A DNA stretch of 36,334 nucleotides from a virus (taxonomy: Duplodnaviria > Caudoviricetes): IMG/VR virus record IMGVR_UViG_3300017774_001282, positions 1-36,334 of that record. One strand, given 5' to 3'. Numbering within the stretch: the first letter of the stretch is position 1; every line of letters begins with the position of its first letter. Made by a program: the position numbers and the translations under genes. Of the stretch, positions 2,968 through 24,127 are shown piece after piece. Under the pieces are notes generated by a model. It searched no databases. It was not told the DNA's origin and saw nothing but the letters and a program-made list of their open reading frames with translations.

Positions 2968-3008
2968 CCCTGCCATTTCCATGGTGGGGCATTCTTGTTT
3001 ATTTTATT
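2968..3008 (+). terminator. Rho-independent terminator
   Basis: GCCCTGCCAT-TTCC-ATGGTGGGGC hairpin followed by a T-rich run. Confidence 0.65.
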
Positions 3009-3038
3009 TGATGGATACGAATATTGGCACTATTTTTG
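3007..3038 (+). promoter_or_regulatory. Bacteroidota primary-sigma promoter (-33 TTTG, -7 TATTTTTG)
   Basis: TTTG 3007-3010, 20-nt spacer, TAnnTTTG 3031-3038, ATG at 3060. Confidence 0.7.
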
Positions 3039-3059: not shown

Positions 3060-3509
3060 ATGGCAAAAGTTACAAAAACTTACGAGGAGCTGTTGAGGCT
3101 CGTTACCACGATCAATGCACTTAGCTCTAACAAGGAGCATGTAGAGGAAAACACCAAGGGTGTAAAGAAACTACAGAAGATTGGTACAAAGTTGAAGACA
3201 AACCTTGAAGAGTACAACGAGAAGCTTGAGGACATCCGTCTTGACGCTGCTCACACGGACGACAAGGGTTGCCTGATTACAGACGACAAGGGTGGGTACA
3301 AGTACTCAAAGGACGGCATTAAGAAGCTTAACAAGGACATCAAGGCCTTGCTCCAGAACACATTCGAGTTCTACCAGTTCACCTTCTCTAACGAGGGCAT
3401 TGAGAACTATGCATTCCTAGAGGGATGGGTTGAAGGACTTGAGTTCCCAAAGATGGAACAAGAAGATGACGAAACTATTGACGAGTTTGTTCCAATGGAG
3501 GTAATCTAA
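3060..3509 (+). CDS. Hypothetical helical/acidic protein (possible tail assembly chaperone)
   Basis: ORF with A-rich leader before ATG 3060; coiled-coil character. Confidence 0.65.
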   Translation: MAKVTKTYEELLRLVTTINALSSNKEHVEENTKGVKKLQKIGTKLKTNLEEYNEKLEDIRLDAAHTDDKGCLITDDKGGYKYSKDGIKKLNKDIKALLQNTFEFYQFTFSNEGIENYAFLEGWVEGLEFPKMEQEDDETIDEFVPMEVI

Positions 3510-3533
3510 AATACTTTTCATGCGTGTTGATTC

Positions 3534-3563
3534 GGGGAGGTCAGTCTTGGCTTCCCCTTTTTT
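3534..3563 (+). terminator. Rho-independent terminator
   Basis: GGGGAGG...CTTCCCC hairpin plus T-tract. Confidence 0.75.
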
Positions 3564-5155: not shown

Positions 5156-5350
5156 ATGAATGCACACAATGACATTACGTTTCTAGGAGTCCCATCAACA
5201 ATATTAAGCTGGATGGCATACTTAAACATTGTGAACATTAACCCTTTCATTAACTTTGTGGTCAGCATATTTTCTCTTGTGTGGCTATCCATACAGATAT
5301 ACTCGTGGACAGAGAAGAGAATAAAAGAAAAAAGAAATGGCAGCCAATAA
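5156..5350 (+). CDS. Small membrane protein (second holin/antiholin-like)
   Basis: 64 aa, hydrophobic core and basic C-terminus; TATATTTG at 5128-5135. Confidence 0.6.
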   Translation: MNAHNDITFLGVPSTILSWMAYLNIVNINPFINFVVSIFSLVWLSIQIYSWTEKRIKEKRNGSQ

Positions 5351-5612
5351 GAACGCTGGTAAGCATCCTAGTTACGAAGGCTGGAGTCCATCCTCTATCC
5401 AGAGGAAGAGGGCGTACGATAAGAAGTACCACAAGACTGACTCAAGGAAGAGGTACAGGGCGCGCCTGAACAAGGCTAATAAAGATGCAGGAACTTATGG
5501 TAATGGTGACGGGATGGACATGAGCCACACCAAGTCTGGTAAACTGAAACTAGAATTAAATAGAATTAACAGGGGAAGGAACGGATCAAACGGAAAGTCT
5601 ACCAAGGCTTAA
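5337..5612 (+). CDS. Small basic HNH-like protein
   Basis: R..LNK...GDGMDMSH...NRGRN pattern typical of small phage HNH-like proteins. Confidence 0.6.
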   Translation: MAANKNAGKHPSYEGWSPSSIQRKRAYDKKYHKTDSRKRYRARLNKANKDAGTYGNGDGMDMSHTKSGKLKLELNRINRGRNGSNGKSTKA

Positions 5613-22110: not shown

Positions 22111-22347
22111 TTATTTGGTTATGATTTCAATGATTCGCTGTCTGATTCTATCGATGTTGCATGGCGCTTCATACGGGATGGAAACCCTCTTGGACCTATG
22201 CAGATTGGCTAAGTACTTGTCTTCTACCCTATACCACTCGTATACTTCAAGGGAATACCCATCCCTACCGCGCTTGGTAGCGTAAAATTCATACATGCCA
22301 TGCTTGAATAACTTGTAGCCGTCTTCTGATTCAAATTTGATTTTCAT
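22111..22347 (-). CDS. Hypothetical protein
   Basis: 78-aa ORF. Confidence 0.6.
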   Translation of the reverse strand: MKIKFESEDGYKLFKHGMYEFYATKRGRDGYSLEVYEWYRVEDKYLANLHRSKRVSIPYEAPCNIDRIRQRIIEIITK

Positions 22348-22363
22348 ATGCTTTTTTAGAATG

Positions 22364-22693
22364 TTATTTGATTGCTCTCACAAACCATGAGCCATTTGGT
22401 GAATATAGTTCATAGCCTACTACCTTGCACATGGACTGCACTGCATTCCAAATGTCTTTAACATCTGAATGGCAGAGGAAATGCCGATTGCCATGGTGGT
22501 ATTGGATTGTTTTACCCAATTGTGGCTCAATACATTTGCAGAAATTGGCGTAGTATTCCATGTTGAACTTGAAGTCTCTGAGATTCACGACGGAGTCTAG
22601 TAACATTCTGCGCTCACGTCCTAGGATGCCTATGCTTCTTGCCTCGTCACGAGACATGGTCAGTAACTTGTTGAGAGATTGTTGTTTTGACAT
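22364..22693 (-). CDS. Hypothetical protein, first gene of the early operon
   Basis: 109-aa ORF with A-rich leader directly downstream of the twister ribozyme. Confidence 0.65.
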   Translation of the reverse strand: MSKQQSLNKLLTMSRDEARSIGILGRERRMLLDSVVNLRDFKFNMEYYANFCKCIEPQLGKTIQYHHGNRHFLCHSDVKDIWNAVQSMCKVVGYELYSPNGSWFVRAIK

Positions 22694-22725
22694 GATATTA
22701 AGTTTATTTGGTTTGATTTATCTGG

Positions 22726-22791
22726 ACGACCTCTCTGTATTTATTCGGGCTTGAGACCGACATCCGATTCCGGCATGGCTACATTAGTCAT
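22726..22791 (-). ncRNA. Twister self-cleaving ribozyme, type P1
   Basis: Minus strand AUGAC-UAA-UGUA-GC-CAUGCCG GAAU CGGAUG-UCGG-UCUCAAGC-CCGA-AUAAA-UACA-GAGAG-GUCGU: P1 AUGAC/GUCGU, UAA cleavage loop, P2 UGUA/UACA, P3, P4 UCGG/CCGA with loop UCUCAAGC, CUC/GAG pseudoknot. Confidence 0.9.
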
Positions 22792-23158
22792 TCACGCTCC
22801 CATCTAAGCAAAATTGCTACGTGGTGAGCGCAAAAGCAATCCATTGAGCCTCATGACTACGATTAAATCCGTATGCGATAAATCTGCAATACGTTCGATG
22901 GATTGGCTACTCTCTCATTTATAATCTCAGCAAGTTGATTGGGACTGCCTACTTCCTAACTGACTTACGTCGTGAGGTGGTTTCGTGTTTAGGTTAGGAG
23001 TGCATTTCCAAGGATGGTTACTTGGTGTTCCTAGAGCCCGTTTACATTCCGGTTAACGTTTACTGAGTGATTTCGCGCAGTGCAGTTTTTTAAGCATTAC
23101 TCTTATTGGTGTTGACCGGATGGTCAGTGCATTTCCATTGTGAGTGATAAAAACCTGC

Positions 23159-23170
23159 ATGTCAATGAAC
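23159..23170 (-). promoter_or_regulatory. boxA-like antitermination element (GTTCATTGACAT)
   Basis: Resembles rrn boxA (GYTCTTTGACA-type) about 50 nt after the early promoter. Confidence 0.55.
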
Positions 23171-23224
23171 TGGGTGGGCAGGGAGTAGGCCACTTAGTTA
23201 GGTGGGCTGTGCCGCTTTCGAATA

Positions 23225-23255
23225 CAAATCTAGACCTATTTTGCAGATTAGCAAA
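23225..23255 (-). promoter_or_regulatory. Early promoter (-33 TTTG, -7 TAGATTTG)
   Basis: TTTG (23252-23255, -), 19-nt spacer, TAnnTTTG (23225-23232, -); TTAACA-N5-TTAACA immediately upstream. Confidence 0.8.
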
Positions 23256-23263
23256 CAGTGAGA

Positions 23264-23764
23264 TGTTAAAACTTTGTTAAACGATTTTTGCATAGATCTA
23301 TGGGCATGCGATAATCCCACCACCAATTGAACCGCGCGACACACATGCGCGCATACGCGTACGCACACGTGTAAGGGAAAACTGTGTTAAAGAAAAGCCA
23401 AAAAATATGTTAAAGAAAACCAAAAATCCCCAAATTTCGATTATCTCAGTGCCGGTAAGGTGTTTGTATGGTTTGGGGGGTTGAGGGGCTTAAATCGGCT
23501 TCTAAATCGTTTTAGATTTGATGCAGTGGATATGTTAAAGTCCTGTGAAAACCAATGCTTTAACACCACGTTAACAACTTTAACCTTATACGGATGTAGT
23601 ACAATACAATACAATAATGTTGAGAAGGATGAGAGATTGCGCAATACAATAAAATAGGGACGTAAACAATAGGTTATCCCCTAGTTTAACATCCCTTTAA
23701 CAATGTTCCACGTGAAACAATCACTTTAACATATAATTAACAAGGCATTGTGAACTCCTTAACA
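23264..23764. repeat. Array of TTAACA hexamers, mostly as 11-bp-spaced direct pairs
   Basis: Pairs at 23264/23275 (TGTTAA), 23560/23571, 23686/23697 and 23726/23737(/23759); singles at 23385, 23408 and 23533. Confidence 0.75.
23704..23719. promoter_or_regulatory. parS: parS centromere-like site
   Basis: TGTTCCACGTGAAACA, an exact match to the bacterial parS consensus TGTTNCACGTGAAACA. Confidence 0.85.
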
Positions 23765-23831
23765 TACTAAAGATCTTAGCAAATCGTACTAAAGAATTTA
23801 GTAATGCCGGAATCGAAATTCAATGTAGCAA

Positions 23832-23859: not shown

Positions 23860-24127
23860 CATTAACTTTGCACTCTGAGGCCACTCGGTATAGGAAAGTG
23901 ACTTGCCTAGGTGGGGGATCGAGCCCACGCGCTGGAGAGTCCCTAACGTAGTCACACATCTCACTAATTTCATGCATGCAGACACTTAGGGAATGCATGA
24001 ATGAATGACTTGGTCAGCCCTTTAATATATATAAGAAGGAAACCCCACAACTCGTTGACAATCAACACTAGGATTCCCCTATTAGGGAATGAAATCCCCA
24101 GGTGGGTAAAAAACGCTACATTTGGGT

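Follow-up and report, generated by a model that had tools for sequence, protein, structure and literature searches.

The DNA analysed here, a 36,334-nt stretch of phage sequence that we call the window, encodes a type-P1 twister ribozyme just before the first gene of its likely early operon, and in relatives with the same arrangement this slot is always occupied by a folded element, which may be a twister, a type III hammerhead or a tRNA-like fold. Since the slot is filled by any of these three, the cut itself is probably what matters, and we consider it likely that a processing cut at this position is under selection.

Anatomy of the Twister Ribozyme

The twister lies at 22791-22726 on the minus strand, where its pairing was checked element by element and with Rfam. 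Each element named in an earlier reading of the letters alone (the sequence-only reading) was found at its place:

22791-22787/22730-22726 (minus): P1, five pairs, two of them G-U
22786-22784 (minus): UAA, the L1 loop with the scissile step, matching the consensus columns
22783-22780/22739-22736 (minus): P2, all pairs standard
22779-22778 (minus): GC element of the twister
22777-22761 (minus): P3 hairpin of the twister
22760-22757/22748-22745 (minus): P4, all pairs standard
22757-22756 (minus): conserved GU at the P4/L4 border, matching the consensus columns
22756-22749 (minus): P4 loop UCUCAAGC, the twister L4
22744-22740 (minus): AUAAA linker of the twister
22735-22731 (minus): GAGAG element of the twister

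The motif thus has the features of its class, with stems P1, P2 and P4, ends in P1, the T1 and T2 pseudoknots, the U-A scissile step, the GU at the P4/L4 border and the catalytic G and A. P3 is optional in type-P1 twisters, and T1 and T2 run from L4 to L1 and L2 (PMC6154101). In the window both pseudoknots are fully paired, T1 (CUC/GAG) by C-G, U-A and C-G and T2 (GC/GC) by G-C and C-G. There is no non-standard pair in P1, P2, P4 or either pseudoknot, and the Rfam alignment marks no broken pair. The gap of 32 nt between the end of the motif and the ATG at 22693, given by the same reading, is exact.

A cmscan of the whole window matched RF03160 (twister-P1) at 22727-22790 on the minus strand over the full length of the model (1-68 of 68), with 54.8 bits and an E-value of 9.1e-10 (4e-11 when only 1.6 kb was scanned), and this was the sole Rfam match in the window at E<=1. 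The Rfam check that had been suggested therefore gave a significant match, at a score below the gathering score of 67.2; for this reason a default Rfam scan of the window is blank, with 0 matches at the gathering threshold. The value of 67.2 is a curated database cut-off rather than a biochemical feature, and four of the five other twister matches in the positive-control scan likewise score below it. T1 departs from the RF03160 consensus by a paired change (CUC/GAG against CCC/GGG in the model). A pattern for the CUC/GAG variant matched 63 viral loci, 44 of which have a full P2 and a UAA-type loop, with 27 distinct sequences. Many of these twisters sit shortly before a start codon, often in unrelated phages; taken alone, a twister before a phage start codon is common and ordinary.

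Cleavage is predicted between U22786 and A22785, 92 nt before the ATG at 22693, with G22735 as putative general base and A22785 as putative general acid, roles that were mapped through the model alignment. By the established chemistry of twisters, such a cut would leave 2',3'-cyclic phosphate and 5'-OH ends. Twisters cut at the U-A step of L1 using a general-base G and a general-acid A (PMC6154101). The class, predicted cleavage site and predicted products of the sequence-only reading are accordingly supported by the Rfam alignment, published twister structures and the pairing check, and the twister is very probably active.

The sequence of the twister region is not an assembly artefact. The contig of run X3 covers 22579-23579 with two differences from the window, and contigs of X5 and X7, both from one other study, cross the twister without a listed change in it. 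A blastn search of 22300-23600 against 50,697 annotated phage records gave no match. The RNA run X24 (share 0.05) provided a single 206-nt contig (22299-22504), which lies inside the first ORF and says nothing about the cut; run X9 provided no contig here.

The stability of the 66-nt motif does not exceed that of shuffled sequences (z 0.15). In a context of 131 nt (22830-22700) the probability of P1 was 0.95 and in contexts of 175-618 nt it fell to 0.00-0.31, where P1 was out-competed, both by a program that ignores pseudoknots and folding order. The fold of 22830-22700 contains one further element:

22795-22830 (minus): hairpin directly upstream of the twister

With this hairpin whole, the P1 probability was 0.95, and with the hairpin cut at 22800 it was 0.09, so the hairpin may insulate the twister from mispairing.

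Genome Setting, Promoter and Leader

At 59% completeness, the window represents part of a phage genome, and it occurs in runs labelled freshwater metagenome. The plus strand encodes the terminase, the portal and a virion protein. The minus strand encodes a run of small ORFs without assigned function, followed by Erf, exonuclease and primase-helicase, and from this gene layout the small-gene run is likely the early operon. Four features define its start:

23225-23255 (minus): Bacteroidota sigma-A-type promoter, TTTG at 23255-23252, 19 nt, TAnnTTTG at 23232-23225
23159-23171 (minus): boxA-like motif about 50 nt past the predicted start, its 13 nt identical to a pre-rRNA sequence of Bacteroidota
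22786-23220 (minus): gene-free leader of about 435 nt, the predicted 5' cleavage product, with a 2',3'-cyclic phosphate end
22364-22693 (minus): 109-aa ORF that opens the small-gene run, with a predicted 5' UTR of 92 nt after the cut

The TAnnTTTG element at -12 to -5 is of the Bacteroidota sigma-A type (PMC9723704), and the transcription start is predicted near 23220. The combination TTTG-N19-TAnnTTTG at 23255-23225 is one of three such matches in the window and is also kept in the related loci L001/L005 and L007. A scan for sigma-70 promoters found 5 sites where 5.8 were expected and was set aside. Contig breaks between 23300 and 24100, looked at for a genome end, scatter. The 109-aa ORF had no PHROG match and no Pfam match over the cut-off; its homologue in L001 is 61% identical and is not the first gene there.

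The longest ATG ORF in the leader has 35 aa, and there is one GTG ORF of 46 aa. Folding of the leader is not above that of shuffles (z -0.62), it aligns to a relative (L118) over its first ~65 nt only, and in the whole-window scan at E<=1 it had no Rfam match besides the twister. The X5 contig spans 22951-22664 and represents a strain that keeps the twister, has about 186 extra nt between the twister and the 109-aa gene and has a different leader above 22951.

The motif at 23171-23159 is the sole AGTTC[TA]TT on the minus strand of the window. One of the 64 parts of the genome collection was searched with a 16-nt boxA-like pattern derived from the relatives L044 and L045, and it contained 122 matching stretches. 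Eighty stretches had flanks; 49 of these stand before rRNA sequence (47 of 23S type, including one spacer-only match, and two of 16S) and 46 follow a tRNA, mostly in Bacteroidota. The 13 nt at 23171-23159 are the part of this pattern that the window matches. Judging from where it stands and from its similarity to the E. coli consensus, this host pre-rRNA sequence is likely boxA. The short 8-nt form lies 38-67 nt past the promoter motif in 15/15 of the leaders compared below, most of which have only these 8 nt. The chance of finding it is 0.6% per shuffled 75-nt stretch, a figure to be read in light of the relatedness of the leaders and of a pattern set after inspection.

Exchange of Folds in the Slot

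Relatives were gathered through two neighbouring proteins, in sets of 14 loci and of 80 and 30 loci; L030, the window's own contig, was dropped. Enough upstream DNA was present in 56 loci (window included), of which 19 matched the promoter motif and 37 did not. From the 19 we dropped L040 and L085 (truncated), L047 and L048 (gene first) and L133 (duplicate), and L135 was added by the 94.6% identity of its leader to that of L083, giving a census of 15. These 15 leaders are not independent, as three pairs are 94-99% alike, and they form about 10 groups. The slot of all 15 direct-leader phages holds a folded element, a twister in 2, a type III hammerhead in 7 and a tRNA-like fold in 6, and in each case the element stops shortly upstream of the first ATG:

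Window, L082: twister
L110, L081, L137, L083, L134, L135, L136: type III hammerhead
L031, L032, L118, L119, L091, L123: tRNA-like fold of acceptor plus T-arm

Rfam supports the L082 twister (E 1e-5) and the hammerheads of L083 (E 1.4e-6) and of L110, which is the same as L007 (E 5.3e-7); the remaining slot hammerheads were called by descriptor. All matches of this descriptor were on the early strand, and they fell either in the slot or at one other pre-ATG site downstream of it. The Rfam scans of leaders are not exhaustive, because a scan of 11 loci missed the L007 hammerhead. The L082 twister has its own paired changes in T1 and T2. The tRNA-like fold matched no Rfam family beyond T-arm matches to tRNA and tmRNA in E-value scans of the relatives' leaders. 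Its covariation in the slot is weak (1/14 pairs in four sequences, L123 left out), and a shorter version in relatives that place a gene first covaries well (6/13 pairs in five sequences). We infer that all three folds would be cut near their own 5' edge, and the predicted cuts fall 61-95 nt before the first ATG across the 15 leaders.

The exchange is sharpest between L082 and L083, whose leaders are 92% identical over 290 nt before ribozyme class and first gene switch at one junction. The nearest kin of the window, L031 and L032 (97% identity in the marker protein), have the tRNA-like fold in the slot and the next, L110, has a hammerhead. A marker-gene tree of 32 rows, built from a single 160-aa marker that is 1.3 kb distant in genomes of mosaic make-up, places the two twisters in different supported clades. 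Related virus records contained no twister (0/14 and 0/19, one record being in both sets) in searches where the positive control worked; 6 of 11 metagenome loci were scanned with Rfam instead of this search. Other layouts occur among the 56 loci. Some put a gene first, and L061, L063, L068, L089 and L126 have no long leader or slot element in the part read. With many relatives arranged differently, the slot element is not a family-wide need.

These data bear on the possibility that the twister is a recent passenger, inactive or neutral, which came by recombination with a small-gene cassette. The region is highly mosaic, the score of the twister is sub-threshold, and neither the nearest kin nor those related virus records that were searched contain the ribozyme. 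Against this, no core helix or pseudoknot has a mismatch, contigs of two other studies carry the twister without listed changes and the slot was never empty in the 15 phages. A passenger is hardly probable at all.

Proposed Role of the Cut

The sequence-only reading had taken the cut to mature the first mRNA and to free the leader. This receives indirect support from the Bacteroidota-type promoter about 435 nt upstream and from the folded, likely cleavable element kept in the slot; the twister itself is not conserved. As a mechanism, we propose that the host polymerase would start near 23220 and that NusB/NusE, once bound to the boxA-like motif, would keep the 5' end tethered to the polymerase and make the RNA loop out, as in rRNA operons and at lambda nutL. 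Such RNA loops would repress translation of the downstream gene, and a cut 92 nt before the first AUG would open the loop without a host nuclease. Any element cutting at its own 5' edge should suffice, and three unrelated folds may replace each other precisely because any 5'-edge cutter will do. The freed first genes would then be translated while the polymerase, probably Nus-modified, reads on. NusB/E are known to bind boxA and tether RNA to the polymerase (PMC5725501; PMC10250234). In E. coli suhB, boxA represses translation across 100 nt, and lambda nutL, about 200 nt before N, represses N, for which a loop was proposed (PMC5725501). The distance from boxA to AUG in the window, about 465 nt, is longer than any distance shown to repress. 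Bacteroidota are without Shine-Dalgarno initiation (PMC6847099) and therefore results on E. coli boxA may not carry over. Altogether, we give somewhat less than even credence to the purpose proposed here, in which the twister removes a gene-free boxA leader and so permits translation of the first genes.

A wider formulation is speculative and rather doubtful: these Bacteroidota phages may hijack host rRNA antitermination with a copied boxA and then snip the tethered leader by a plug-in cutter, which could be a twister, a hammerhead or a mini-tRNA. The mini-tRNA would either recruit host RNase P/Z or be a self-cleaving RNA in its own right that has gone unrecognised. If true, the ribozyme would do without protein what the RNase III site does in lambda, and many orphan ribozymes before phage early genes would gain a first concrete job.

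Alternatively, and in line with the sequence-only reading, the cut could give the early mRNA a folded, nuclease-resistant 5'-OH end and a standard short UTR irrespective of the upstream sequence, boxA being a separate feature. After cleavage of a twister-P1 or of a type III hammerhead the mRNA keeps most of the ribozyme fold, and the distance from cut to ATG stays within 61-95 nt even as leaders and first genes vary. CUC/GAG twisters are often close before start codons of unrelated phages, and the transcript 5' end of HHphage, a hammerhead of haloviruses, is within 3 nt of its cut (PMC3088659). The retention of a boxA leader of 330-540 nt would be left unexplained. RNase P cleavage leaves a 5'-phosphate, so that a tRNA-like fold cut by this enzyme would lack the 5'-OH, which cannot then be the shared feature. 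With 6 of the 15 phages using the tRNA-like fold, the 5'-OH end named by the earlier reading is probably not the point, because a host-enzyme cut of that fold would leave none. As the function of the slot, this explanation is unlikely.

The released leader could also be a functional phage non-coding RNA of ~330-540 nt whose 3' end is set by the ribozyme, such as a decoy that draws off Nus factors or further RNA-binding proteins of the host. Each of the 15 leaders is long (~330-540 nt) and lacks an ATG ORF >58 aa, relatives have blocks of leader sequence in common, and the cut leaves a scar of only 4-8 nt on the leader shared by L082 and L083. The leader of the window, for its part, folds no better than shuffles, has no Rfam match of its own and matches relatives over its first ~65 nt only, and the strain from another study diverges upstream of 22951 yet keeps the twister. 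We regard such an RNA as quite improbable. Both 5'-end protection and a leader RNA are compatible with the loop-opening role preferred here.

Lastly, the cut could be a decay trigger or timer that limits early expression, which is very unlikely. A folded 5' end or a tRNA-like fold generally shields RNA from decay, and the twister has no ligand-binding part, although equilibrium folding suggests that it could be switchable. Cleavage of glmS in a 5' UTR does lead to mRNA degradation (PMC6765202), but twisters are a fast, constitutive class (PMC6154101).

Comparison With Known Systems

The window twister adds a new member to a class that is already known, and the kind of place in which it sits is known as well. 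It shares P1-P4, both pseudoknots, the U-A step and the catalytic G and A with described type-P1 twisters (RF03160; rice Osa-1-4 and environmental examples; PMC6154101). It differs from them in T1 (CUC/GAG, not CCC/GGG), in a score under the curated cut-off and in that its activity is predicted.

The closest precedent for its place is HHphage of haloviruses HF1/HF2, where a hammerhead precedes the first early ORF by 13 nt (Perreault et al., 2011; PMC3088659). HHphage and clustered prophage hammerheads likewise put a self-cleaving RNA before the first ORF of an early polycistronic transcript, mRNA processing was likewise proposed and the neighbouring genes are likewise not constant (PMC3088659). 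The window in contrast has a twister rather than a hammerhead, and a bacterial host. Compared with the available parts of that account, the present loci add an exchange of class at one junction of orthologous leaders, a tRNA-like alternative and an upstream boxA-like motif.

The lambda pL leader has the same order of early promoter, boxA, structured spacer, cut site and first gene (PMC5725501). In lambda the cutter is RNase III, whereas here it would be an RNA fold. The boxA of the window resembles host rRNA boxA, whereas lambda has boxB and N, and its function here is put forward by analogy. Rrn-type antitermination complexes need no phage protein. Work by Wilson in 2002 reportedly showed that RNase III cleavage between nutL and N relieves the repression of N. 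A boxA near the transcript start, as in lambda nut/rrn-type leaders, is indicated here by the 13-nt identity to Bacteroidota pre-rRNA sequence; we suggest that the window leader may work like such an antitermination leader and do not file it as a member. Theta (HDV-like) ribozymes of gut phages also tie a phage ribozyme to RNA processing and tRNA, but they adjoin real tRNAs, whereas here the tRNA-like fold replaces the ribozyme (PMC10879173).

In searches of the open-licence literature we found no paper that joins boxA, phage leaders and self-cleaving ribozymes or that describes a three-way swap of twister, hammerhead and tRNA-like fold; Roth 2014 and Weinberg 2015/2017 may list such loci. The searches did yield one paper on an engineered hammerhead in rRNA, and the main text of a 2026 preprint on new ribozyme classes is without the terms phage, tRNA-like, T-loop and start codon. 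The role of self-cleaving ribozymes in phages is an open question (PMC6765202). The swap series is useful here, as it offers near-identical leaders with three folds at one junction behind a boxA-like motif, and it turns this question into a small factorial design (cutter active or dead, boxA present or absent, three modules). By the same guilt-by-position logic that brought twister sister, pistol and hatchet to light, the series also marks out the tRNA-like fold as a candidate for a processing element.

Further Structured Elements

Several other elements were seen in the window and its relatives. At 13350-12745 (minus), a second Bacteroidota-type promoter is followed by a gene-free stretch of about 600 nt that leads up to Erf; it had no Rfam match and is possibly another structured leader. 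Many relatives conserve a short motif (23883-23895 in the window) ~235-400 nt ahead of the 162-aa gene. Upstream of the promoter, purines and pyrimidines alternate in a tract at 23330-23375; both features are possible packaging or origin signals. Across the divergent spacer, a 21-nt inverted repeat (86%) joins 22765-22785, within P2/P3 of the twister, to 23795-23815, and an 11-mer of it recurs in the leaders of L031, L119 and L123. The arm at 23795-23815 is not a second twister.

ARAGORN found no tRNA in the window. Folds resembling the top half of a tRNA, with a stem of 8-9 bp and a T-arm-like hairpin, stand just before start codons inside the small-gene run at 21884-21839 and 20482-20440 (both minus), and similar ones occur in L110 and L118. 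A relaxed tRNA-like descriptor matched the window three times and shuffled sequences 0-2 times; the fold at 20482-20440 was not among its matches.

Among the relatives, L111-L114, L139, L044, L045, L029 and L027 have a Lys/Ala-rich gene of 130-160 aa first, whose product is a candidate antitermination factor. They have one or two strong boxA-like sites with a T-loop hairpin, and their long non-coding stretch ends in a covarying mini-tRNA of 43 nt. A second hammerhead, of type I, is present in L081 (2162-2107), L083 (2198-2135), L087 (1773-1722) and L122 (2161-2109), all minus, and in L135-L137 (minus). It lies 10-25 nt before a later early gene, and L082 has a core variant in the same place.

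Unrelated phages carry ribozyme matches too, in L003 at 2658-2712, 2971-3033 and 5322-5393 and in L004 at 1300-1365, 2471-2540 and 3469-3539, where two twisters and a twister-sister or HDV-like match lie within one gene run. A stricter twister pattern found three unrelated phage contigs with twisters, two of which have further ribozyme matches.
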